Translations under genes and position numbers: made by a program
Notes under the pieces: generated by a model
Told to the model about the DNA's origin: nothing
The model's input: the letters and a program-made list of their open reading frames with translations, nothing else
Database searches by the model: none
Virus record (IMG/VR): IMGVR_UViG_2698536418_000009
Span: 1-10,929 of that record
Source of the DNA: a virus
Lineage: Duplodnaviria; Heunggongvirae; Uroviricota; Caudoviricetes
Strand: one strand, 5' to 3'
DNA: 10,929 nucleotides
Shown: piece after piece, positions 1 through 10,929 of the stretch
How the letters are laid out: each line of letters begins with the position of its first letter
How positions within the stretch are numbered: the stretch's first letter is position 1

Positions 1-272
1 CCGCGATTGACATACATCGGCGTTTCGGTGGTGTCTTCTTCGGAAATTTTCCCGCGGTTAGTCGGGCGAACATATGAGAGTTTGTGTTTTATTTTCACAC
101 GGTTCTCATCAAACGGTTCGATTTCCAGGTTGAGCGAGACCTTACCTTTGGTTTTCGTGTTCATCACACCGGAAGCGACTTCACTGAGAACTGCGCCGAT
201 TTTGGTTTCAAATACGCCGCCGTCCAGCTCCCCGATAAATGCCTGCACATCAGTACTGCGTTCGCTAGCCAT
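1..272 (-). CDS. Hypothetical early-left-operon protein, partial (start ATG at 272-270, runs off the left edge of the window); N-terminus MASERSTDVQAFIGELDGG...
   Basis: Reverse-strand frame open for 90 codons from ATG (plus 270-272) to the window edge. GAGGAG Shine-Dalgarno 7 nt upstream (rev-comp of 282-287). Not in the ORF track because no stop lies inside the window. Confidence 0.5.
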   Translation of the reverse strand, partial: MASERSTDVQAFIGELDGGVFETKIGAVLSEVASGVMNTKTKGKVSLNLEIEPFDENRVKIKHKLSYVRPTNRGKISEEDTTETPMYVNR

Positions 273-299
273 TTTGCTGCTCCTCATCATATCGACCCT

Positions 300-620
300 G
301 CAAGGTCGGTTGGTTTCTCCACAAAACAGAGAAGAACACCTGCGGTGGCAGCCGCCCGGATGGATTGGGTTATGAGCCCGTCGTCCGGTGATGCTCTTCT
401 CTGTTTTGTAAAAAGGACGGTACCAGCCGGAAGCAAGGATACAAGCTGATACCGCCAAGACTACACACAGCATAAAGTTGTGGTGCCGGGTGCCTCCCGG
501 TGCCTGGCGAAGGTTGCACACCAGGCGGGTGGGTATCCACAGAAGGTCGACTGTCAGCCTCAACCTTAACCCGCGTGCGCTGAGTCGCATTCACCACAAC
601 GCTAAGGATTCTCTTTGGTT
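300..620. other. GC-rich structured non-coding stretch with a perfect 15-bp inverted repeat (321-335 / 395-409) enclosing a 59-nt loop; candidate RNA element
   Basis: ACAAAACAGAGAAGA at 321-335 is the exact reverse complement of TCTTCTCTGTTTTGT at 395-409. Further short GC stems downstream (CCTGG...CCAGG, CCGGG...CCCGG). The only ORFs here are Pro/Arg-rich, implausible products. Confidence 0.3.
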
Positions 621-861
621 GAAAATACTTAGCTGTTATGTGCCTGTCTTTTCACCACTTCAGGCTCGGTGGTATCTTGGTGTTTTCATATAGCCAAGAA
701 GGAAATAGTTATGACCAAAGAAGAAAAATTCTTTATTTATTCCAACTATCGGTTAAGACTCGCACTGCATATCAGACTGCTGCCATGACATCAGATAAAA
801 ATTACAGTACGTCAGAAAACCCGATAGACGACATAAGCAAGCTTTACGATAGTTCGAAGCA

Positions 862-1038
862 CTACTCGATAAAAAGTTTGCTGAGGCTGGGCTTGAGTGA
901 TTGTTGAATAATCGACAAAACCCAACTTAAATTTTCGTCAGTGGGCTCGATGCCATGTGCGGTGAGCTCACTTTTCAAAACTCCAAGCAATTCAGAGCTG
1001 ATTTTCAATATATCTGCTTGAGTTCTAACTATTCCCAC
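862..1038 (-). CDS. Hypothetical small protein of the leftward early operon (58 aa from GTG; alternative ATG start at 1068 gives 68 aa)
   Basis: ORF track 862..1068 minus. Strong SD AGGGAGG (rev-comp) about 5 nt upstream of in-frame GTG at 1038-1036; the ATG at 1068 has no SD. Same orientation as neighbouring early-left genes. Confidence 0.4.
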   Translation of the reverse strand: MGIVRTQADILKISSELLGVLKSELTAHGIEPTDENLSWVLSIIQQSLKPSLSKLFIE

Positions 1039-1127
1039 TTTTTCCTCCCTTGGTCTACGCGCGGTCATGTTTTACGCCCAAACGACTTCACAGTTATTGT
1101 TTAAAATCTGGACTTTCATTTTGTTCT

Positions 1128-1331
1128 TTAACCTCCAGATTTCAGCGTATCTAAAGGCGCATTCTCATTTGGTGTGAACCGAATAGTTGTGCTGATATTG
1201 ATTAATGCCCCGACACACAAGACTACGCACTCAGAGCAGATAGCAACTTCATCTTTTCCGCCTTTGGCGATGATTTTTTTTGCCTGCAGCTCGTTTGCGC
1301 CACAAAACGAGCATGTGAAATAACTGTTCAT
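1128..1331 (-). CDS. Stand-alone ClpX-type C4 zinc-ribbon protein (zf-C4_ClpX-like), about 67 aa
   Basis: Product contains CSFCG...(21 aa)...CSECVVLC, matching the Cys spacing and local residues of the ClpX N-terminal zinc-binding domain (E. coli ClpX: [32 protein letters not shown]). Start is uncertain: the track begins at 1349, the internal Met is at 1331, and my hand reverse-complement near 1317-1321 did not reproduce the track frame. Confidence 0.5.
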   Translation of the reverse strand: MNSYFTCSFCGANELQAKKIIAKGGKDEVAICSECVVLCVGALINISTTIRFTPNENAPLDTLKSGG

Positions 1332-1441
1332 TTGTGCTCTCTTACACATAGTATTTAACGAATCATCCGGTCATTCATACGCCACCGGCGGCTACTTCGT
1401 GGGCGTCCTGCCTGTTCGTTACTGCAACATCTTTAAGTTGT

Positions 1442-1474
1442 AATCTAGTTGTTGTTTTGGTTGTTGTCAACAAC
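1442..1474 (-). promoter_or_regulatory. pL-like leftward early promoter with overlapping operator palindrome (OL)
   Basis: On the minus strand: -35 TTGACA (plus 1465-1470), 17-bp spacer, -10 TAGATT (plus 1442-1447). Palindrome GTTGTTG-T-CAACAAC at 1460-1474 overlaps the -35; another GTTGTTG at 1448-1454. Confidence 0.4.
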
Positions 1475-1664
1475 TTTATGTGGTTTTGACGGATGTGAAA
1501 TGAGGGCAAGGGTTATCAAAAAAGAAGGTTGTATGGACGATGCGCTTTTAATTACACAAGGGACACTTTCCTTCCGTGATTGGAAACTCTCAAATCACGG
1601 GAGGAAGATTGAAAAGGCGGGTAATAATGGTAACTAAATTTCTGAAGGAAGGTTTTTTGATGCA

Positions 1665-2351
1665 TTACCAAGTGCGCGATGACCAGAATACTCTACCTAT
1701 AACGTGAATTCTGGAACGCCTATCTTCGAAGGTGAGTATTTCATCTGGATACTCATCTTTATTGAAACTTCTTAGAATCAGACCACCGTCAGGTAAATTG
1801 ATCAATATTTTAACTCTAAGTAATACGCCATCACGTATGGCATAAAGATCCCCATCACGAATAGGAACCGTTTGGGAAACATCAACAGCAACAAAATCTC
1901 CATTGTTAAGTACAGGTAGTAAACTATTGCCCCAAATTTTTACGATCTTTGCATTGGAGACACATACACCAGCTTTTCTTAAATCAATCCTTCTTAGCGG
2001 GAACCAGTCTACAGTTGATTCAACTATTTCAGCCAAACATCCATTACCCGCTGATAACTCGACATCTAGGACTGGAATGTTTGCAAAAATGTCAGGATCT
2101 AATGCTGTACTTTCAGCCTCCTTTACAACAAGGTCTGGGAAAGACGCGTTATCCTCAATTCCCAATTGCAACCACTTTTGAGAAACCCCTAACACTTTAG
2201 CAATCTCTTTAATTTTCCGAGGCTGTTGAGTTTCTCCATTCTCGATTTTCGCTACGGATTGTTGTGAAAGCCCAATTTTTTCAGCTAGTTGCGCCTGACT
2301 CATTCCTGCTTTTTCTCTTTCGCTTTTTAGTCTTTCTGCCAATGTTTTCAC
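1665..2351 (-). CDS. cI: Phage CI-type repressor: N-terminal XRE-family HTH plus C-terminal S24 (LexA-like) autopeptidase domain
   Basis: 228-aa ORF. N-terminus has the HTH_XRE signature (AGMSQAQLAEKIGLSQQSVAKIENGETQQP); the C-terminal half has the size and layout of an S24 peptidase domain, but I did not identify the catalytic Ser/Lys. Transcribed divergently from the cro-like gene. GTG start with GAGGGGGA SD. Confidence 0.88.
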   Translation of the reverse strand: MKTLAERLKSEREKAGMSQAQLAEKIGLSQQSVAKIENGETQQPRKIKEIAKVLGVSQKWLQLGIEDNASFPDLVVKEAESTALDPDIFANIPVLDVELSAGNGCLAEIVESTVDWFPLRRIDLRKAGVCVSNAKIVKIWGNSLLPVLNNGDFVAVDVSQTVPIRDGDLYAIRDGVLLRVKILINLPDGGLILRSFNKDEYPDEILTFEDRRSRIHVIGRVFWSSRTW

Positions 2352-2378
2352 AACATATCCCCCTCGTTTTTATTGAGG

Positions 2379-2470
2379 TTACAACTTTATGTTTTAGCTT
2401 TCCAACATCTAAAAGTTGTGATAAAAGTTGTTGTAGTTGTATAATCGAAGTTATCAACAACTTTACTACT
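2379..2470 (+). promoter_or_regulatory. OR/pR-like region: rightward promoter (-35 TTGTGA 2416-2421, -10 TATAAT 2440-2445) flanked by operator half-sites
   Basis: Consensus -10 TATAAT with an 18-bp spacer to TTGTGA. Half-sites ACAACTTT (2381-2388), AAAGTTGT (2412-2419), GTTGTTG (2427-2433) and CAACAAC (2455-2461), the same motif family as at OL. AGGAG SD precedes the cro-like ATG at 2489. Confidence 0.45.
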
Positions 2471-2488
2471 TACAGATAGGAGAAAGCT

Positions 2489-2737
2489 ATGACACCTGAG
2501 CAATTAGCCTTATCAGAGGCAATCGCTCTGGCTGGTGGTCAATCAGAATTGGCTCGGAAGCTCACAGCCAGCAGTGGTCGTTTAGTAAAGCAACAACATG
2601 TCTGGAACTGGTTGAACAGAGAAAAGCGTCCCCCTGCAAAGCTCTCGATATTTATTGAAATGACCACTGGCGTATCAAAAGAAAAATTACGTCCAGATAT
2701 TTTTCAAAAGATTAAAGACTTATCAGATGGAAAGTAA
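2489..2737 (+). CDS. Cro-like / YdaS-family HTH regulator (82 aa)
   Basis: First gene rightward of the immunity promoter region. Motif AGGQSELARKL ... RPDIF is typical of the small Cro/YdaS-like (DUF1870-type) prophage regulators. AGGAGA SD 4 nt upstream of the ATG. Confidence 0.7.
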   Translation: MTPEQLALSEAIALAGGQSELARKLTASSGRLVKQQHVWNWLNREKRPPAKLSIFIEMTTGVSKEKLRPDIFQKIKDLSDGK

Positions 2738-3197
2738 CCACAGTTTTAAGGAGATAGCCGTGGGTAAGCATCACTGGAAAGTAGAAAAACAGCCTGAGTG
2801 GTACGTGAAAGCTGTCAGAAAAACTATCGCAACGTTGCCGGGTGGTTACGCTGAAGCAGCTGACTGGCTGGATGTAACAGAGAACGCATTATTTAACCGC
2901 CTTCGTGCCGATGGCGATCAGATTTTCCCGCTGGGATGGGCAATGATTTTGCAACGTGCTGGTGGAACTCACTTCATTGCTGACGCTGTGGCGCAGTCTG
3001 CAAATGGCGTCTTTGTGTCTCTTCCTGACGTCGAGGATGTGGACAACGCCGATATAAACCAGCGCCTGCTGGAAGTCATCGAACAGATCGGGAGTTACTC
3101 AAAGCAGATTCGTTCGGCAATCGAAGATGGGGTAGTGGAGCCACACGAGCAGACAGCAATTAATGATGAGTTGTATCTGTCAATTTCGAAGCTCTAG
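2727..3197 (+). CDS. CII-like early regulator (phage CII/CP76- or YdaT-type), 145-156 aa
   Basis: Sits immediately after the cro-like gene; size and position fit CII-like prophage regulators. ATG at 2727 overlaps the cro-like stop; an in-frame GTG at 2760 has a strong AAGGAG SD (2748-2753), so the true start may be 2760. Confidence 0.55.
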   Translation: MESNHSFKEIAVGKHHWKVEKQPEWYVKAVRKTIATLPGGYAEAADWLDVTENALFNRLRADGDQIFPLGWAMILQRAGGTHFIADAVAQSANGVFVSLPDVEDVDNADINQRLLEVIEQIGSYSKQIRSAIEDGVVEPHEQTAINDELYLSISKL

Positions 3198-3492
3198 GAG
3201 CATGCAGCACTGGTCTACAAAATCTTTTGCGCTCCAGAAGAGAGTAACGCCCGCGAGTGTGCAGCTCCGGGCGTCGTGGCGTCGATTGCTTCTGGTTGTG
3301 GAGAAACTAACGCATGAACAGTTTAACAACACACTACCGTCGCTCGCAACTGATTGCGCTTCCTGTACCGGGTGGAAAAGCGAAGGTGGAGTATTGCTAT
3401 GCAGTGAATGTACCAGGTGACAGGGAAATTGTAACCCACAGCTTTGCAGAGTGGGCTGTGGGTGATTTCAACCGGCAGAAGGAGACAGTCCT

Positions 3493-3705
3493 TTGCGACA
3501 AGTTAACCGCTGGTTCAAAGATCACTACGGAGTGCCCGTCAGAGTCATTCGTTGGGAGCCGGAAACACAACGGGTTATCTACCTCCGTGAAGGCTATGAA
3601 CATGAATGCTTCAGTCCGCTCGAACAGTTTCGTCGTAAATTCAGGGAAATAGAGGTCGGTCATGAGCCTGTTAATGACATCCCAGCCCATTGTGATAAAT
3701 CGTGA
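3493..3705 (+). CDS. Small conserved protein (70 aa, TTG start) directly upstream of and overlapping the O-like gene
   Basis: AAGGAG SD (3479-3484) 8 nt upstream of TTG 3493. All five nucleotide differences between the two copies in this ORF (3573, 3588, 3600, 3606, 3615) are synonymous third-position changes in this frame and would be nonsynonymous in the overlapping frame of ORF 3314..3652. Confidence 0.5.
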
Positions 3706-4021
3706 TCTTGCATGCCGTATTGGTCTGAATGAGGCAATTGTGTTGCAGCAGCTTCATTACTGGCTGAATGAAACGAATTCAGGCACTGAGCATGGCGGAA
3801 TTCGCTGGGTTTATAACACGACAGAACAGTGGCTGGAGCAGTTTCCGTTCTGGTCAGAGTCCACTCTGAAACGCACATTTGCAAGCCTGAAATCACTTGG
3901 GGTTTTGCGTCGCGAGCAACTCAATAAATCGAAGCGTGACATGACCAACTTCTACACGATCAACTATGAAAGTGAGCTTTTAGAAGAGGTCAAAATGCAC
4001 TTCTCCATCGGGTCAAAGTGA
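3662..4021 (+). CDS. O-like replication initiator, N-terminal DNA-binding domain (119 aa), separated from the C-terminal domain by an in-iteron TGA stop and frame change
   Basis: GAGGT SD before ATG 3662. Product ends ...HFSIGSK inside the iteron array. The next ORF (4026..4631) is in a different frame and matches the C-terminal two-thirds of the intact O-like protein at 6552..7493. Confidence 0.55.
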   Translation: MSLLMTSQPIVINRDLACRIGLNEAIVLQQLHYWLNETNSGTEHGGIRWVYNTTEQWLEQFPFWSESTLKRTFASLKSLGVLRREQLNKSKRDMTNFYTINYESELLEEVKMHFSIGSK

Positions 4022-4138
4022 CCTGATGGATGGGCGCAAAATGATACGATCCATTGGTTCAAAACGACACGCTGTCATCGGGTCAAAATGGCCCAATGAT
4101 CTTACAGAGAATACAACAGAGATTACTACAGAGAATAA
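3986..4138 (+). repeat. Candidate ori iterons of copy 1: four GGTCAAA-core repeats (3986-4000, 4008-4023, 4054-4070, 4078-4094) plus three tandem 12-bp A-rich repeats (4103-4138)
   Basis: Direct repeats GAGGTCAAAATGCAC / TCGGGTCAAAGTGACC / TTGGTTCAAAACGACAC / TCGGGTCAAAATGGCCC, then TACAGAGAATAC / AACAGAGATTAC / TACAGAGAATAA. They sit at the N-domain/C-domain junction of the O-like gene, the same place lambda ori sits in gene O. Confidence 0.5.
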
Positions 4139-4631
4139 AACCTCTTCTCGTCCGGACGCTTCGCAACCGGACACGCAAACGGCTGAACAGGAGTTTTTAA
4201 CTCGCCATCCTGATGCGGTTGTATTCAGCCCTAAAAAGCGCCAGTGGGGAACGCAGGATGATTTGACCTGCGCACAGTGGCTCTGGAAAAAAATCATCGC
4301 CCTGTACGAGCAGGCCGCCGAATGTGACGGCGAGGTGGTTCGTCCCAAAGAACCGAACTGGACAGCATGGGCAAACGAAATTCGCCTGATGTGTGTGCAG
4401 GATGGTCGTACTCACAAACAAATCTGCGAGATGTACAGCCGCGTCAGCCGCGATCCGTTCTGGTGCCGTAACGTGCTCAGCCCGTCGAAGTTGCGGGAAA
4501 AATGGGATGAGCTTTCCCTGCGCTTATCGCCGTCCGTCAGCACGCACACAGAAAAACGTGAAGACCCGTACTTCAAAGCCAGTTACGACAACGTGGACTA
4601 CAGCCAGATCCCGGCAGGATTCAGGGGGTGA
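4026..4631 (+). CDS. O-like replication initiator, C-terminal domain ORF (201 aa); possibly the 3' part of a disrupted O gene
   Basis: Residues from TSSRPDASQPDTQTAEQ onward match the C-terminal region of ORF 6552..7493 apart from a few substitutions. Weak SD before ATG 4026. Confidence 0.55.
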   Translation: MDGRKMIRSIGSKRHAVIGSKWPNDLTENTTEITTENKTSSRPDASQPDTQTAEQEFLTRHPDAVVFSPKKRQWGTQDDLTCAQWLWKKIIALYEQAAECDGEVVRPKEPNWTAWANEIRLMCVQDGRTHKQICEMYSRVSRDPFWCRNVLSPSKLREKWDELSLRLSPSVSTHTEKREDPYFKASYDNVDYSQIPAGFRG

Positions 4632-4633
4632 TC

Positions 4634-4726
4634 ATGAGTCTGTTAAATGACGTTCAGAAATTCATTGAAGCCCATCCGGGCTGTACTTCCGGAGACATTG
4701 CGGATGCTTTTTACGTGGGGGCTTAA
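4634..4726 (+). pseudogene. 30-codon remnant of the PerC-like regulator gene (in-frame 396-bp internal deletion relative to 7496..7984)
   Basis: Encodes MSLLNDVQKFIEAHPGCTSGDIADAF + YVGA, i.e. the first 26 and last 4 codons of the 162-aa copy-2 protein. Deletion junction near 4708-4712 in a short T-run. The stop/start overlap TAATG with the methyltransferase gene is retained. Confidence 0.5.
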
Positions 4727-5379
4727 TGAGTAATAAATATTGCCAGGCGCTGGTAGAACTGCGGAACAAACCAGCCCATGAACTGAAGGAAGTGGGCGAT
4801 CAGTGGCGCACGCCGGACAACATTTTCTGGGGAATTAACACCTTGTTTGGTCCGTTTGTTCTGGATCTGTTCACTGACGGTGATAACGCCAAATGTGCCG
4901 CGTATTACACGGCGGAAGACAACGCGCTGGCGCATGACTGGTCAGAACGTCTTGCGGAGCTTAAAGGTGCTGCCTTTGGCAATCCCCCGTACAGCCGCGC
5001 CAGTCAGCATGAGGGGCAATACATCACCGGCATGCGTTACATCATGAAGCATGCCAGTGCCATGCGTGATAAAGGCGGGCGCTATGTTTTCCTGATCAAA
5101 GCTGCCACCGGCGAAGTGTGGTGGCCGGAAGGTGCAGATCATATTGCTTTTATTCGCGGGCGTATTGGTTTTGAACTGCCTGCCTGGTTTATCCCGAAAG
5201 ACGAAAAGCAGGTGCCAACAGGTGCTTTCTTCGCTGGTGCTATTGCTGTTTTCGACAAGACCTGGAAGGGACCGGCAATCAGCTACATCGGGCGCGATGA
5301 ACTTGAGGCATGTGGTGAGGCATTTCTGGCGCAGGTTCGCCAGCAGGCGGAAAAACTGGTCAGGGAGATGGTGGCATGA
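4726..5379 (+). CDS. Phage DNA N6-adenine methyltransferase (orphan, Dam-like), copy 1
   Basis: 217 aa with the catalytic motif GNPPYS (the (D/N/S)PP(Y/F) motif IV of N6-adenine MTases). Start overlaps the upstream stop (TAATG); stop overlaps the rusA start (ATGA). Confidence 0.8.
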   Translation: MSNKYCQALVELRNKPAHELKEVGDQWRTPDNIFWGINTLFGPFVLDLFTDGDNAKCAAYYTAEDNALAHDWSERLAELKGAAFGNPPYSRASQHEGQYITGMRYIMKHASAMRDKGGRYVFLIKAATGEVWWPEGADHIAFIRGRIGFELPAWFIPKDEKQVPTGAFFAGAIAVFDKTWKGPAISYIGRDELEACGEAFLAQVRQQAEKLVREMVA

Positions 5380-5765
5380 AGCTAATACTGCCTTTTCCGC
5401 CCAGCGTGAACACGTACTGGCGACACCCCAACAAAGGGGCATTTGCTGGTAAGAGCCTGATAAGCGAGGCGGGGCGAAAATTTCAGAGCGCGGCGTGTGC
5501 CGCCATCATTGAGCAGTTACGTCGTCTGCCGAAACCAACGTCGGCACCTGCTTCAGTGGAGATCGTGTTGTTTCCTCCGGATAACAGGATCCGCGATCTG
5601 GACAACTATAACAAGGCGCTGTTTGACGCCCTGACCCACGCGGGTGTGTGGGAAGACGACAGTCAGGTGAAAAGAATGCTGGTGGAGTGGGGACCGGTTA
5701 TCCCGAAAGGGAAGGTCGAGATCACTATCAGTAAGTACGAGAAAACGGCGGGTGCAGCCGCCTGA
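5376..5765 (+). CDS. rusA: RusA-family Holliday junction resolvase, copy 1
   Basis: 129 aa; MKLILPFPPSVNTYW... and RDLDNYNKALFDALTHAGVWEDDSQV follow the RusA layout. Typical nin-region position. Confidence 0.85.
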   Translation: MKLILPFPPSVNTYWRHPNKGAFAGKSLISEAGRKFQSAACAAIIEQLRRLPKPTSAPASVEIVLFPPDNRIRDLDNYNKALFDALTHAGVWEDDSQVKRMLVEWGPVIPKGKVEITISKYEKTAGAAA

Positions 5766-5784
5766 TCAAGAGGAGAAACGAAGT

Positions 5785-6207
5785 ATGAATAATCTGATGG
5801 TCATTGATGGTATTGAAGTTCGTCGTGATGTTTATGGGCGTTACAGCCTGAACGATCTACATCACGCAGCAGTAGCATCTGGTGCAAATGCCAGAACCAA
5901 GGAGCCAGGAAAGTTTCTTTCCAGCCAACAAACTGTTGAACTTGTTCATGAATTGACCAACACCCAGAATTTGGGTGTTGACCCGGTGAGTGTGATTCAT
6001 GGGGGAAATGAACGGGGAACGTATGTCTGCAAGGAACTGGTGTATGCCTATGCAATGTGGATCAGCCCGTCATTCCATCTGAAGGTGATCCGTACTTTCG
6101 ATATGGTAACCAGCGCACCGGAAAAATTATCCGGACAGGCTGCTGACAAGATGCAGGCTGGCGTGATCCTGCTGGACTTTATGCGATGTGGAGAAACTAA
6201 CGCATGA
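5785..6207 (+). CDS. KilA-N domain protein, copy 1, C-terminally truncated at the duplication junction (140 aa)
   Basis: AGGAG SD 9 nt before ATG 5785. Matches the first 133 residues of ORF 9366..10175, then diverges at 6186 into 7 novel codons (CGETNA plus stop) supplied by the start of unit 2. Confidence 0.65.
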
Positions 6208-6382
6208 ACAGTTTAACAACACACTACCGTCGCTCGCAACTGATTGCGCTTCCTGTACCGGGTGGAAAAGCGAAGGTGGAGTATTGCTATGCAGTAAATG
6301 TACCAGGTGACAGGGAAATTGTAACCCACAGCTTTGCAGAGTGGGCTGTGGGTGATTTCAACCGGCAGAAGGAGACAGTCCT

Positions 6383-6562
6383 TTGCGACAAGTTAACCGC
6401 TGGTTCAAAGATCACTACGGAGTGCCCGTCAGAGTCATTCGTTGGGAGCCGGAAACACAACGTGTTATCTACCTCCGCGAAGGCTATGAGCATGAGTGCT
6501 TCAGCCCGCTCGAACAGTTTCGTCGTAAATTCAGGGAAATAGAGGTCGGTCATGAGCACTAA
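6383..6562 (+). CDS. Small conserved protein, copy 2 (59 aa, TTG start), overlapping the start of the intact O-like gene
   Basis: Same SD and TTG as at 3493; coding sequence differs from copy 1 only by synonymous changes up to the repeat boundary. Below the ORF-track length cutoff. Confidence 0.45.
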
Positions 6563-7493
6563 ATTAACCGGCTATGTATGGGATGGTTGCGCTGCATCAG
6601 GCATGAAATTATCCAGCGTGGCAATTATGGCCCGCCTGGCTGATTTCAGTAATGACGAAGGTGTGTGCTGGCCATCAATTGAAACCATTGCCCGCCAGAT
6701 TGGCGCGGGGATGAGTACCGTCAGAACGGCTATCGCACGGCTGGAAGCAGAAGGCTGGTTAACGCGTAGGGCGCGTCGCCAGGGTAACCGCAATGCGTCG
6801 AATGTTTATCAGCTTAACGTTGCGAAGCTTCAGGCAGCGGCATTTTCTCAACTGTCAGATTCTGACCCGTCAAAATCTGACGCATCAAAATCTGACCCGT
6901 CAAAATTTGATGCGTCGAAATCTGGCAAAAAAGCGGGTTTTCACCCGTCAGAATCTGGTGGGGATCCGTCAGTAAAATCAAAACATGATCCGTCAGATAA
7001 AAAAACTTCTCGTCCGGACGCTTCGCAACCGGACACGCAGACGGCTGAACAGGATTTTTTAACTCGCCATCCTGATGCGGTTGTATTCAGCCCTAAAAAG
7101 CGCCAGTGGGGGACGCAGGATGATTTGACCTGCGCACAGTGGCTCTGGAAAAAAATCATCGCCCTGTACGAGCATGCCGCCGAATGTGACGGCGAGGTGG
7201 TTCGTCCCAAAGAACCGAACTGGACAGCCTGGGCAAACGAAATTCGCCTGATGTGTGTGCAGGATGGTCGTACTCATAAACAAATCTGCGAGATGTACAG
7301 CCGCGTCAGTCGCGATCCGTTCTGGTGCCGTAACGTGCTCAGCCCGTCGAAGCTGCGGGAAAAATGGGATGAGCTTTCCCTGCGCTTATCGCCGTCCGTC
7401 AGCACGTACACCGAAAAACGCGAAGACCCGTACTTCAAAGCCAGTTACGACAACGTGGACTACAGCCAGATCCCGGCAGGATTCAGGGGGTGA
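6552..7493 (+). CDS. O-like replication initiator (replisome organizer), intact, 313 aa: N-terminal winged-helix DNA-binding domain, iteron-encoded linker, conserved C-terminal domain
   Basis: GAGGT SD 5 nt before ATG 6552. The N-terminal 90 aa look like a helix-turn-helix replication-initiator fold. The linker is encoded by tandem 15-bp repeats (SDPSK/SDASK). C-terminal domain shared with ORF 4026..4631. Confidence 0.75.
   Translation: MSTKLTGYVWDGCAASGMKLSSVAIMARLADFSNDEGVCWPSIETIARQIGAGMSTVRTAIARLEAEGWLTRRARRQGNRNASNVYQLNVAKLQAAAFSQLSDSDPSKSDASKSDPSKFDASKSGKKAGFHPSESGGDPSVKSKHDPSDKKTSRPDASQPDTQTAEQDFLTRHPDAVVFSPKKRQWGTQDDLTCAQWLWKKIIALYEHAAECDGEVVRPKEPNWTAWANEIRLMCVQDGRTHKQICEMYSRVSRDPFWCRNVLSPSKLREKWDELSLRLSPSVSTYTEKREDPYFKASYDNVDYSQIPAGFRG
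6861..7006 (+). repeat. Candidate ori iterons of copy 2: four tandem 15-bp repeats (consensus about CCGTCAAAATCTGAC, 6866-6925), an A-rich tract, and three degenerate CCGTCAG-containing repeats
   Basis: CCGTCAAAATCTGAC / GCATCAAAATCTGAC / CCGTCAAAATTTGAT / GCGTCGAAATCTGGC, then GGCAAAAAAGCGGG, then CCCGTCAGAATCTGG, TCCGTCAGTAAAATC, TCCGTCAGATAAAAAAAC. Located inside the O-like gene linker. Confidence 0.55.
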
Positions 7494-7495
7494 TC

Positions 7496-7984
7496 ATGAG
7501 TCTTTTGAATGACGTTCAGAAATTCATTGAAGCCCATCCGGGGTGTACTTCCGGAGACATTGCGGATGCTTTTGCAGGTTACTCACGACAGCGCGTTCTG
7601 CAGTCAGCAAGCAAGTTACGTCAGAGTGGGCGTGTGGCTCACCGTTGTGAAGGGGATACACGCAGACATTTCCCGCGGCTGACTGAGATACCGCAGGAGC
7701 CGGAACCGCAACCAGTTCGTGAATCCAGACCTGTGCGCAATTTCTATGTCGGCACTAACGATCCCCGGGTGATTTTGTGCCTGACCCGCCAGGCGGAAGA
7801 ACTGGAGTCCAGGGGCTTATACCGTCGTGCTGCAACGGTGTGGATGGCGGCATTCCGTGAAAGCCACTCCCAGCAAGAGCGAAACAATTTTCTGGCGCGT
7901 CGTGAGCGGTGTTTACGGAAAAGCAGCAAGCGCGCTGCATCGGGTGAAGAGTGGTATCTGTCAGGGAATTACGTGGGGGCTTAA
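7496..7984 (+). CDS. PerC-like transcriptional regulator with N-terminal HTH-like region (162 aa)
   Basis: C-terminal motif AEELESRGLYRRAATVWMAAF resembles the PerC/Pch family signature as I remember it. AGGGGG SD before ATG 7496. Stop overlaps the MTase start (TAATG). Confidence 0.5.
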   Translation: MSLLNDVQKFIEAHPGCTSGDIADAFAGYSRQRVLQSASKLRQSGRVAHRCEGDTRRHFPRLTEIPQEPEPQPVRESRPVRNFYVGTNDPRVILCLTRQAEELESRGLYRRAATVWMAAFRESHSQQERNNFLARRERCLRKSSKRAASGEEWYLSGNYVGA

Positions 7985-8637
7985 TGAGTAATAAATATTG
8001 CCAGGCGCTGGTGGAGCTGCGGAACAAACCAGCCCATGAACTGAAGGAAGTGGGCGATCAGTGGCGCACGCCGGACAACATTTTCTGGGGAATTAACACC
8101 CTGTTTGGCCCGTTTGTTCTGGATCTGTTTACTGATGGTGATAACGCCAAATGCGCCGCGTATTACACTGCGGAAGACAACGCGCTGGCGCATGACTGGT
8201 CAGAACGTCTTGCGGAGCTTAAAGGTGCTGCCTTTGGTAATCCCCCGTACAGCCGCGCCAGTCAGCATGAGGGGCAATACATCACCGGCATGCGTTACAT
8301 CATGAAGCATGCCAGTGCCATGCGTGATAAAGGCGGGCGCTATGTTTTCCTGATCAAAGCTGCCACCAGCGAAGTTTGGTGGCCGGAAGATGCAGACCAT
8401 ATTGCTTTTATTCGCGGGCGTATTGGTTTTGAACTGCCAGCCTGGTTTATCCCGAAGGACGAGAAGCAGGTGCCGACAGGCGCTTTCTTCGCTGGTGCTA
8501 TTGCTGTTTTCGACAAGACCCGGAAGGGACCGGCAATCAGCTACATCGGGCGCGATGAACTTGAGGCATGTGGTGAGGCCTTTCTGGCGCAGGTTCGCCA
8601 GCAGGCGGAAAAACTGGTCAGGGAGATGGCGGCATGA
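7984..8637 (+). CDS. Phage DNA N6-adenine methyltransferase (orphan, Dam-like), copy 2
   Basis: 217 aa with GNPPYS motif. Differs from copy 1 by about 20 nt substitutions counted by eye, giving 4 amino-acid changes. The track start at 7951 is an upstream GTG; the ATG at 7984 matches copy 1. Confidence 0.8.
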   Translation: MSNKYCQALVELRNKPAHELKEVGDQWRTPDNIFWGINTLFGPFVLDLFTDGDNAKCAAYYTAEDNALAHDWSERLAELKGAAFGNPPYSRASQHEGQYITGMRYIMKHASAMRDKGGRYVFLIKAATSEVWWPEDADHIAFIRGRIGFELPAWFIPKDEKQVPTGAFFAGAIAVFDKTRKGPAISYIGRDELEACGEAFLAQVRQQAEKLVREMAA

Positions 8638-8960
8638 CGACGTTAACTCAATGCCAGCAGCAGGTGCTGGATATGCTGATTTCTTACCAGCAAGAACGTG
8701 GCTTTCCGCCAACCAATCAGGAGGTGGCAACCATGCTGGGATACCGTTCGGTGAATGCAGCGGTGGAGCATCTTCGCGCACTGGAGAAAAAAGGCGTCAT
8801 CACGATAAAGCGTGGCGTGGCCCGGGGGATAACTCTTCATACCGCGGTGAAGGACGACGACAGCGAGGCGGTCGGGATTATCCGCGCACTGCTTGCCGGT
8901 GAGGAAAACGCCAGGCTGCGTGCAGCCCACTGGTTACATGAGAGGGGCCTGAAAGTATGA
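8634..8960 (+). CDS. LexA N-terminal DNA-binding-domain protein lacking the S24 peptidase domain (108 aa)
   Basis: TQCQQQVLDMLISYQQERGFPPTNQEVATMLGYRSVNAAVEHLRALEKKGVITIKRGVARGITL aligns with the E. coli LexA winged-helix DNA-binding domain (...[62 protein letters not shown]). No peptidase domain follows. ATGA overlaps at both ends. Confidence 0.7.
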   Translation: MTTLTQCQQQVLDMLISYQQERGFPPTNQEVATMLGYRSVNAAVEHLRALEKKGVITIKRGVARGITLHTAVKDDDSEAVGIIRALLAGEENARLRAAHWLHERGLKV

Positions 8961-9346
8961 AGCTGATCTTGCCTTTCCCGCCCAGCGTGAACACGTACTG
9001 GCGACACCCCAACAAAGGGGCGTTTGCTGGTAAGAGTCTGATAAGCGCAGCGGGGCGCAAATTCCAGAGCGCGGCGTGCGCAGCAATAGTTGAGCAGTTA
9101 CGTCGTCTGCCGAAACCAACGTCGGCACCTGCTTCAGTGGAGATCGTGTTGTTTCCTCCGGATAACCGGATCCGCGATCTGGACAACTATAACAAGGCGC
9201 TGTTTGACGCCCTGACCCATGCGGGTGTGTGGGAAGACGACAGTCAGGTGAAAAGAATGCTGGTGGAGTGGGGACCGGTTATCCCGAAAGGGAAGGTCGA
9301 GATCACTATCAGTAAGTACGAGAAAACGGCGGGTGCAGCCGCCTGA
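8957..9346 (+). CDS. rusA: RusA-family Holliday junction resolvase, copy 2
   Basis: 129 aa, 2 amino-acid differences from copy 1. Start overlaps the stop of the upstream LexA-DBD gene. Confidence 0.85.
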   Translation: MKLILPFPPSVNTYWRHPNKGAFAGKSLISAAGRKFQSAACAAIVEQLRRLPKPTSAPASVEIVLFPPDNRIRDLDNYNKALFDALTHAGVWEDDSQVKRMLVEWGPVIPKGKVEITISKYEKTAGAAA

Positions 9347-9365
9347 TCAAGAGGAGAAACGAAGT

Positions 9366-10175
9366 ATGAATAATCTGATGGTCATTGATGGTATTGAAGT
9401 TCGTCGTGATGTTTATGGGCGTTACAGCCTGAACGATCTACATCACGCAGCAGTAGCATCTGGTGCAAATGCCAGAACCAAGGAGCCAGGAAAGTTTCTT
9501 TCCAGCCAACAAACTGTTGAACTTGTTCATGAATTGACCAACACCCAGAATTTGGGTGTTGACCCGGTGAGTGTGATTCATGGGGGAAATGAACGGGGAA
9601 CGTATGTCTGCAAGGAACTGGTGTATGCCTATGCAATGTGGATCAGCCCGTCATTCCATCTGAAGGTGATCCGTACTTTCGACATGGTAACCAGCACACC
9701 GGAAAAATTATCCGGACAGGCTGCTGACAAGATGCAGGCTGGTGTGATTCTGCTGGACTTTATGCGTCGGGAATTAAACCTGTCTAACTCATCTGTGCTT
9801 GGTGCCTGTCAGAAACTCCAGGAGGCTGTTGGCTTACCGAATCTGGCACCGCGCTATGCCATTGATGCTCCTGCTGATGCACACGATGGCTCAAGTCGCC
9901 CGACACTGTCACTGAGTGCACTGCTGAAACAGTATGGTATCCGCCTGACGGCTAATCAGGCATATCACCAGATGGCAAAGCTGGGGATCGTTGAACAACG
10001 TGAACGATACAGCCGCACTGCGATTAACAACATCAAAAAATTCTGGTCGCTGACGGCGAAAGGCTGCATGTTCGGCAAGAACATCACCAGTCCCGCAAAT
10101 CCGCGCGAGACGCAGCCGCATTTCTTCGAATCCCGATTCCCTGAGCTGTTAAAGCTGCTCGATACCGTTCATTGA
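9366..10175 (+). CDS. KilA-N domain protein with C-terminal antirepressor-like extension (269 aa), full-length copy
   Basis: AGGAG SD 9 nt before ATG 9366. The N-terminal 110 aa have the size and position of a KilA-N domain (recalled, not aligned). The C-terminal 135 aa are unique to this copy. Confidence 0.7.
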   Translation: MNNLMVIDGIEVRRDVYGRYSLNDLHHAAVASGANARTKEPGKFLSSQQTVELVHELTNTQNLGVDPVSVIHGGNERGTYVCKELVYAYAMWISPSFHLKVIRTFDMVTSTPEKLSGQAADKMQAGVILLDFMRRELNLSNSSVLGACQKLQEAVGLPNLAPRYAIDAPADAHDGSSRPTLSLSALLKQYGIRLTANQAYHQMAKLGIVEQRERYSRTAINNIKKFWSLTAKGCMFGKNITSPANPRETQPHFFESRFPELLKLLDTVH

Positions 10176-10182
10176 GGTGACC

Positions 10183-10929
10183 GTGAGAGCACTACTGACC
10201 CCTGAAATTGCCCCGCGTATGGGGATCGTATTGTTCAGGCCAGGTTCAGAGCTGATGCCCCTGTTTATGCAGGGGCGTGTCCTGCTGGAGCCTGAGCCGG
10301 AGCGTTATTCATCTTTCGCCAGTGGTGCCGTTCCGGCGGCATCACAACCGCTGGCGGATGATCCTGCCGTTCGGGCCGTGTTCCGCAATGAGGCAGTGAT
10401 CCGTCGTGCTGGTGGCGTGGAATGTCTTGAAAGCTGGTTACTTCGTGAAAAAGGCTGCCAGTGGCCTCATTCCGACTGGCACAGCGAGAACATGACCACA
10501 ATGCGACACGCTCCGGGTGCAATCCGTCTGTGCTGGCACTGCGATAACCAGCTGCGCGATCAGTTCACGGAACGGCTGGAATCAATGGCAACGGATAACT
10601 GTGCCCGCTGGGTGTTGTCTGTTGTGCGTCGGGATCTCGGTTTTGATGACAGTCACGTTGTGACAATGCCGGAACTGTGCTGGTGGCTGATTCGTAATGA
10701 TCTGGCGGATGCCTTACCGGAAAGTGCAGCCCGTAAGGCACTGAGATTACCGAAGCCTGTTGTGCCGTCTGTTACCCGGGAAAGTGACCTTGTGCCTTCG
10801 GTTCCTGCCACCAGCATCATCCAGGATAAGGCGAAAAAGGTGCTGGCGCTGAAAGTGGATCCGGAGTCGCCGGAGTCTTTTATGTTACGCCCAAAACGTC
10901 GCCGCTGGGTTAATGAAAAGTACACGCGC
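10183..10929 (+). CDS. Conserved prophage protein with a Cys/His cluster, partial (runs off the right edge of the window); start uncertain (GTG 10183 or ATG 10219)
   Basis: Plus-strand frame open for 249 codons to the window end with E. coli-like codon usage. Contains C-x-W-x-H ... H ... C-W-H-C spacing that could bind metal. The minus-strand track ORFs 10265..10522 and 10653..10925 are shorter and judged to be shadows. Confidence 0.5.
   Translation, partial: MRALLTPEIAPRMGIVLFRPGSELMPLFMQGRVLLEPEPERYSSFASGAVPAASQPLADDPAVRAVFRNEAVIRRAGGVECLESWLLREKGCQWPHSDWHSENMTTMRHAPGAIRLCWHCDNQLRDQFTERLESMATDNCARWVLSVVRRDLGFDDSHVVTMPELCWWLIRNDLADALPESAARKALRLPKPVVPSVTRESDLVPSVPATSIIQDKAKKVLALKVDPESPESFMLRPKRRRWVNEKYTR

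Follow-up and report, generated by a model that had tools for sequence, protein, structure and literature searches.

We analyzed a 10,929-bp stretch of viral DNA (hereafter, the window; positions 1–10,929 of the IMG/VR record IMGVR_UViG_2698536418_000009), in which two genes similar to the replication initiator gene O of phage lambda, here called O1 and O2, carry direct repeats (iterons) within their coding regions. Very probably, the window is a scaffold of two CPS-53/SfII/mEp460-like prophage contigs from one Escherichia coli genome, with O1 inactivated by slippage, O2 intact, and both genes belonging to one initiator family. Part 1 of the scaffold would be the early region of prophage A, and part 2 would come from the replication and nin-like part of prophage B.

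The module junction and the O1 gene

The window contains two similar gene trains of the order DUF4222 – O-like – (yfdN) – Dam methylase – (LexA-like) – RusA – KilA-N, as identified with Pfam. Comparison of the window with itself yields four collinear blocks shared by these modules:

3297–3667 versus 6187–6557, block 1, 98.4% identity
4135–4711 versus 6997–7573, block 2, 97.1% identity
4711–5379 versus 7969–8637, block 3, 96.9% identity
5376–6185 versus 8957–9766, block 4, 97.4% identity

Only the O N-terminal and repeat segments (3668–4134 versus 6558–6996) are unrelated between the modules, in addition to two indels comprising yfdN and the LexA-like gene.

Record CYCB01000068.1 (10,929 bp, assembly GCA_001283405.1) is the same sequence as the window over its entire length, the sole difference being at position 6186, where the record has N and the window has A. 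As this is the single base separating the end of module 1 (6185) from the start of module 2 (6187), the substituted A hides a scaffold gap at the module junction:

6186, no strand, scaffold gap; part 1 is 1–6185 (prophage A) and part 2 is 6187–10929 (prophage B type)
Sides of the junction: KilA-N at codon ~140 in part 1, and TGTGGAGAAACTAACG (ymfL 3' end / DUF4222) in part 2

Three other assemblies match part 1 at 99.9% identity, and all have the same deleted O1 (see below); in these sister assemblies the O1 region is followed by full-length KilA-N, DUF968, and an antiterminator, with one replication module only. The four mismatches between part 1 and a sister record all fall within the last 84 bp of part 1. 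Moreover, 5640–6101 is identical between both copies in the window, and 9221–10301 of part 2 is identical to an A-type sister assembly, which fits a collapsed repeat. The contig ends are also placed characteristically: part 1 stops exactly at the divergence point of KilA-N alleles (…ATGCG followed by T or C), and part 2 starts exactly where the independent B-type prophage of FDAARGOS_1059 turns identical to the A-type sequence (TGTGGAGAAAC…). The argument from contig ends rests on this independent prophage, the homology boundary seen at the junction within the window having been set aside as circular.

The truncated KilA-N fusion protein is present in CYCB01000068.1 only, and the junction was not found in 5,426 complete E. 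coli genomes. A megablast search with 5600–6900 against complete E. coli genomes returned only deletion derivatives with other arrangements, and an exact 35-nt junction search in GTDB species representatives gave no match. The sequence between the two tandem modules is interrupted by the N at 6186, and none of the other records searched has the junction. An earlier explanation of the junction as illegitimate recombination at a microhomology with a 1-nt filler was dropped, the filler base being this N.

Such a join would arise if the KilA-N 3' / DUF968 segment, common to the two prophages, had been assembled once, inside part 2; read pairs would then have connected the two parts across a non-positive gap, for which the scaffolder would have written one N. 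A single N at non-positive-gap joins is the habit of SSPACE-type scaffolders. The original prediction had described one prophage with two candidate origins of different specificity; this description most likely rests on a scaffold join of two related prophages, and the first of its two O-like genes is not intact. That gene consists of two ORFs (open reading frames) in different frames, 3662–4021 and 4026–4631, and lacks one iteron unit:

3662–4021, plus strand, O1 5' fragment of 119 amino acids with the winged-helix domain N1 and the linker start; premature TGA at 4019–4021
3986–3987, no strand, site of the 23-bp deletion; missing AGGTCAAAGTGAACGAATCCATC, one iteron unit, so that five of six sites remain
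4026–4631, plus strand, O1 3' fragment, in another frame than the 5' fragment; remaining linker and lambda-O-like C-terminal domain

The missing 23 bp were found by alignment with E. coli Z1323CEC0019 and phage mEp460_4F5. The intact O1 gene encodes 330 amino acids, and the loss of one 23-bp unit shifts its frame, so that translation stops at 4019–4021. The deletion is present in none of the 159 complete E. coli genomes matching the O1 stretch. The deleted allele is found in at least four draft or other assemblies, one of them with a 5.19-Mb contig, and hence is a real allele rather than a read error. Judged by its sequence, O1 is a pseudogene, and slippage leading to the loss of one 23-bp iteron would account for its inactivation. 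The predicted working initiator in this genome is that of the O2 origin only, while the O1 origin keeps five of its six sites and the A-rich tract and has no intact cognate protein.

The fate of O1 has a parallel in a 76%-identical O1-type allele from Rac/Qin-like prophages (L101:4279–4520 and L102:2455–2700), which was truncated independently in two cases to the same 119 amino acids, in one through loss of a different 23-bp unit and in the other through a TGC>TGA nonsense mutation. It appears that iteron slippage repeatedly kills prophage initiators.

The two initiators, their iterons and cassette exchange

O2 is an intact gene, and its product is 98–99% identical to abundant database clusters:

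6552–7493, plus strand, O2, an initiator of 313 amino acids; N-domain an HTH_36 winged helix, linker disordered, C-domain lambda-O-like

The 3' part of O1 is 97% identical to that of O2 at the DNA level (block 2). BLASTP aligns O2 with lambda O at E 3e-26 and 31% identity over 216 amino acids (70–277 of O2 on 78–270 of lambda O), and tblastn gives 35.6% identity between 131–277 of O2 and 139–270 of lambda O. In the 50% library, the common C-domain has 2,625 cluster representatives at E<=1e-3, and Pfam, NCBIfam, and PDB sequence searches return no family for this domain or for O1. By the BLASTP and tblastn alignments, the common C-domain of O1 and O2 is homologous to the lambda O C-terminal domain.

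The N-domains of O1 and O2 (N1 and N2) show no similarity in a pairwise BLASTP comparison (E 9.5). Their profiles do align: hhalign of the N1 profile (33 homologues) with the N2 profile (28 homologues) gives a probability of 90.8% and E 1.2e-6 over 59 columns spanning the recognition helix and the wing, and the MAFFT alignment has invariant S-T…L…G-L…N-Y-x-x-N columns across N1 and N2. PHROG 391 (“replication initiation O-like”) matches both proteins at full length, with E 5.5e-135 for O2 (residues 1–313 on profile positions 1–298) and E 7e-102 for intact O1 (residues 1–330 on the same positions). The N-domain of O2 matches Pfam HTH_36 (E 4e-11); for O1, no Pfam family is above the cutoff, and Phage_rep_O (PF04492) was not listed for either protein at E<=0.01 in the Pfam scan.

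The AlphaFold model of O2 has a winged-helix N-domain, a linker (residues 102–154) with the predicted local distance difference test (pLDDT) score <50, and a confident helical C-domain; N1 is modelled with the winged-helix topology at pLDDT 80. Foldseek searches with both N-domains retrieve winged helices of the MarR/ArsR/TFE type, with 2d1h_A near the top each time, and those with N1 also retrieve N-domains of the RepA_N plasmid initiators (4pql, 4pt7, 5kbj). Hence, by profile and fold comparison, O1 and O2 are allelic members of a single initiator family, in which a disordered linker connects the winged-helix N-domain to the lambda-O-type C-domain.

The iterons of O1 form array 1, which is followed by an A-rich tract:

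3988–4092, plus strand, array 1, with sites at 3988–3999, 4011–4022, 4034–4045 (degenerate), 4057–4068, and 4081–4092
4104–4141, plus strand, A-rich tract, 12-bp repeat ACAGAGAATACA in 3.2 copies, G+C content (GC) ~30%

The sites at 3988, 4011, 4057, and 4081, as well as the degenerate one at 4034, are GGTCAAAATGAC-like and lie on one strand, each within a unit of ~23 bp that has dyad symmetry of the form CATCgGGTCAaa(g/t)TGaCCygATG. In the intact gene there are six sites spaced by 23, 23, 23, 23, and 24 bp, which fall in reading frames 2, 1, 0, 2, 1, and 1; as all three frames are used, a peptide repeat is ruled out. The largest same-strand cluster within 110 bp was compared with that in 300 dinucleotide shuffles: array 1 has four sites in such a span, and the shuffles have at most two. 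The A-rich tract is a candidate DNA-unwinding element of origin 1.

Array 2 lies in O2 and is composed of shorter units:

6852–6959, plus strand, array 2, five tandem 15-bp units (6852–6926) and one more at 6945–6959
6963–7006, plus strand, two GATCCGTCAG-A-rich copies at 24-bp spacing, with an A7 run at the end

Each unit holds the 13-bp near-palindrome GTCA(A/G)A(A/T)TCTGAC, and the six clustered sites compare with at most one in the shuffles. The segment at 6963–7006 is the lowest-GC spot of O2, with 29% over 24 nt, but 40–42% over 40 nt, and is a candidate unwinding element. In addition, an element of ~40 bp in this segment (two GATCCGTCAG, two GATC sites, and A runs) is conserved at the DNA level across N2 subtypes with different iterons (L089–L092). 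A phage gene of the Dam-family methylase (7984–8637) lies one gene downstream of O2, and origin control might be linked to methylation.

The DNA role of array 2 was assessed by comparison across subtypes of N2. All seven subtypes (56–100% identity) have a 15-bp period at gene positions ~303–420, with units that are near-palindromes of 13–15 bp and encode differing peptides (SDPSK, DPSNI/DPSTV, ERPES, SERSA, and FEGSE). The palindromes vary together with the recognition helices: STVRTAIA pairs with (G)TCAAAATCTGA(C) in three subtypes, and STVI(G/T)LI, with a TCCAGAATCTGGA-type palindrome, GTCCAGAATCTGGAC or GTTCAAAATCTGAAC, in two subtypes. Among IMG/VR prophages (L007–L086), the array 2 copy number (6861–6926 in the window) is polymorphic by whole units in near-identical O2 genes, and the N-terminal part upstream of the common C-domain has 147, 152, 157, 162, or 167 amino acids. 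Many database entries for initiators of the O1 and O2 types are “partial” proteins of 120–200 amino acids that stop near the linker, which fits short-read contigs breaking where a unique N-cassette meets a C-domain common to several prophages of a genome.

The segment comprising the N-domain and iterons is bounded by near-identical flanks, 3297–3667 / 6187–6557 on the left and 4135 onward / 6997 onward on the right:

3297–3667, plus strand, upstream block common to the modules (region of DUF4222 and the 112-amino-acid ORF); left boundary of the exchangeable cassette
6997–7493, plus strand, C-domain coding block, 97% identical to 4135–4631; right boundary of the cassette

N1 domains occur widely, in 116 phage records. 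We compared the N1 cassette loci L096:892–1647, L097:892–1707, L100:901–1839, L099:889–1698, L095:901–1686, and window 3662–4141, and observe the following repeats and tracts downstream of N1:

Staphylococcus phage 42E: CATCGGGACAAAATGGCCCGACGATG / AGGACAAATTGGC / AGGACAAAATGAC, 22–23 bp apart; tract TACACAGAGACTAAC…
Bacillus phage TP21-L: TGTCAAAATGAA-type sites, four detected, at distances of 23 or 46 bp; tract CCAGAGACTACACAGAGAATACCAGAGAC
Klebsiella phage SopranoGao, Acinetobacter phage Abp95, and Pseudomonas phage AF: related cores; ACAGAGAnTAC tract

In Staphylococcus phage 42E and Geobacillus phage NIIg9.7, the C-terminal half of the protein is of the DnaB_2/DnaD type (Pfam PF07261). 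The Brevibacillus homologue of N1 lacks GGTCAAAATGAC repeats and is encoded by a split gene; cassette 1 is therefore not universal.

These comparisons support the exchange of the N-domain and iterons as one block between conserved flanks, and show the iterons to be DNA-level signals tracking the N-domain. The original prediction had proposed an arrangement like that of lambda O and its origin, with specificity and iterons exchanged together, and the near-identical flanks and the repeats tracking the N-domain bear this out. It had also correctly recognized the common C-terminal domain and a different repeat array at each domain junction. Its A-rich repeat tract after each array stands for array 1, but after array 2 there are only the two A-rich copies, and its unrelated, non-homologous N-domains turn out to be divergent winged helices. 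Evidence against the possibility it had raised, that the repeats are conserved in homologues purely as coding repeats, comes from array 1 lying in three frames and from the array 2 palindromes being kept across differing peptides.

By analogy with lambda, dimers of the N-domain would bind the dyad-symmetric iterons in the linker-coding DNA of their own gene, the resulting nucleoprotein complex would open the adjoining A-rich tract, and the C-domain would bring in the helicase-loading machinery.

Alternative explanations

Several points weigh against the reading of the window as two joined contigs with one working in-gene origin. Scaffolders join contigs on read-pair evidence, so the adjacency of the modules could be real; of assembly GCA_001283405.1, the comparison covered record CYCB01000068.1. 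Array 2 is in frame and encodes a SDPSK-type peptide, hence its DNA-level role rests on palindromy, phasing, and co-variation. Finally, YfdN, encoded next to O2, has no similarity to lambda P (E 0.21), and no helicase-loader partner was identified.

If the join is real, a hybrid prophage truly has two tandem replication modules of different specificity, having arisen either by a deletion that fused tandem lysogens A and B or by illegitimate crossover of KilA-N in A with the ymfL end in B. The topology is the one expected from a single deletion between tandem prophages, the scaffolder did link both contigs, and the copies differ by ~3% plus indels, so they are no trivial assembly duplication of one sequence. 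Against this, the junction base is N, the sister assemblies nearly identical in part 1 have a single module, none of the complete genomes has the junction, and both contig ends fall at allele-divergence points; moreover, O1 would be frameshifted even in a genuine hybrid. Overall we regard a real join as quite unlikely.

Even less probable, and the least so of the explanations weighed here, is a newly functional split O1, with the 119-amino-acid N-fragment binding the origin to inhibit or exclude O1-type phages, or with both pieces made via termination-reinitiation. The ATG at 4026 does sit 4 nt past the TGA, the N-fragment keeps the whole winged helix, the same truncation arose independently in the 76%-identical allele, and the deleted allele recurs among assemblies. 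Recurrent loss, however, is equally expected from repeat slippage and decay of cryptic prophages, and no ribosome-binding site is evident before 4026.

The repeats could also be mere protein-coding linker repeats, low-complexity spacers made by slippage, the real origin being elsewhere. The in-frame SDPSK/SDASK units of array 2, their polymorphic copy number (with the N-terminal part varying from 147 to 167 amino acids), and the predicted disorder of the linker all agree with this explanation. Still, we find it very unlikely: the sites of array 1 occupy every frame, the same DNA core recurs across phyla although the flanking peptides differ, the palindromes and 15-bp phase of array 2 persist while the peptides change (SDPSK, DPSNI, ERPES, FEGSE), and the position is the same as in the lambda origin, oriλ (PMC7466680).

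Gene context and known origins

The window has the gene map of a lambdoid early region, related to prophages and phages of the CPS-53/KpLE1, SfII, SfIV, and mEp460 type. Upstream of the modules, the ORF map shows three genes:

1665–2351, minus strand, XRE/S24 repressor
2489–2737, cro-like gene
2727–3197, CII/YmfL-like gene

Rfam and tRNA scans of the window are empty. Overlapping ORF pairs in different frames are observed at 3314–3652 / 3493–3705 and 6204–6542 / 6383–6562; the ORF of 112 amino acids matches phrog_1170 (E 1e-69), and the DUF4222 ORF of 59–70 amino acids is the one annotated in RefSeq, so one of these two families was probably built on a shadow ORF. At 8634–8960, module 2 encodes a LexA DNA-binding domain of 108 amino acids without the peptidase domain, which module 1 lacks.

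The gene following O2 is yfdN of the PerC family (Pfam PF06069), which in module 1 is reduced to a remnant:

4636–4725, plus strand, yfdN (PerC family) remnant in module 1; full yfdN at 7490–7984 in module 2

The remnant retains the first ~25 codons, fused to the region preceding the Dam gene. The same remnant is annotated in E. coli Z1323CEC0019, hence the yfdN deletion predates the O1 frameshift.

The C-terminal domain of lambda O binds lambda P. No IstB/DnaC or DnaB gene is present in the window according to the ORF map and Pfam, and the RAST name “Primosomal protein I” (DnaT) carried by homologues is backed by none of the family searches made here. The C-terminal tail of O2 (residues 281–313, 7392–7490, …VDYSQIPAGFRG) has a nearly invariant P-x-G-F-R (alignment A3), and the same tail, at ~80% identity, ends otherwise different replication proteins in Shiga toxin (Stx) 2c phages and phage 1720a-02. 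A host protein may dock at this short motif.

The arrangement of O1 and O2 is ordinary for lambda-like phages, that is, an in-gene origin. In lambda and Stx phages, iterons and an AT-rich tract lie in the middle of the initiator gene, and the iteron number varies, with six iterons in O of the Stx phages P27 and 933W compared to four in lambda and the linker length changing to match (PMC7466680). As in lambda O and oriλ, we observe an N-terminal DNA-binding domain, a linker, and a homologous C-terminal domain, with several dyad-symmetric direct repeats at the domain junction and, next to them, an A+T-rich tract that is clear in O1 but modest in O2 (PMC7466680). Unlike in lambda, the N-domains are outside Phage_rep_O (HTH_36 in O2 and no Pfam family in O1), the iterons differ in sequence and spacing (23–24 bp in O1 and tandem 15-bp units in O2), and O2 is followed by yfdN of the PerC family rather than a lambda P homologue. 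The P27 and 933W genes share with intact O1 the number of six sites, and with O2-type arrays, the variation by whole units; their O is close to lambda O and comes with iterons of the lambda type and a P gene, in contrast to the other N-domains and iterons here.

Gp18 of P22 and gp18 of L each have distinct in-gene repeats from which origin specificity has been inferred (PMC8022706). Like O1 and O2, these are distantly related lambdoid initiators, each with distinct repeats in its own coding region (PMC8022706); the repeat sequences differ from those here, and the initiator is paired with the DnaB-type helicase gp12, which is absent here. The RepA_N initiators (4pql, 4pt7, 5kbj), whose winged-helix, iteron-bound N-domains give the best matches to the N1 model, are similar at the fold level only (Foldseek E ~8e-3, template modelling (TM) score ~0.47, 18% identity). 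The origins of RepA_N replicons are also located inside the rep gene.

The DnaD-like initiators, ORF016 of 42E and gp46 of NIIg9.7, have an N1 domain 47–51% identical to that of O1, and downstream of it, 42E and TP21-L have GGnCAAAATGnC-type repeats at ~23-bp spacing, with an ACAGAGA-rich tract beyond them; unlike in O1, the C-terminal half is of the DnaB_2/DnaD type (PF07261) and not of the lambda-O type. We tentatively suggest, at somewhat less than even confidence, that cassette 1, comprising the N1 winged helix, GGnCAAAATGnC iterons ~23 bp apart, and the ACAGAGAnTAC tract, moves across phyla as a portable, self-contained origin module, the C-domain fused to it being of the lambda-O type in enterobacterial prophages and of the DnaD/DnaB_2 type in Staphylococcus and Geobacillus phages. 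No description of cassette 1 crossing phyla was found in the literature searched, nor any paper on iterons of the O1 or O2 type.

For draft genomes, the window illustrates that one N replaced by a base can mimic a “two-origin prophage”, and module junctions with near-identical copies need checking against the source record. For the lambda-O in-gene origin, O1 and O2 add two uncharacterised specificity types, one with 23-bp iterons read in three frames and the other with 15-bp phased palindromes. If cassette 1 is indeed portable across phyla, origin recognition and helicase recruitment would be swapped independently, and, once confirmed, N1 cassettes would allow origins to be predicted in many phages and could be used to engineer replicons.

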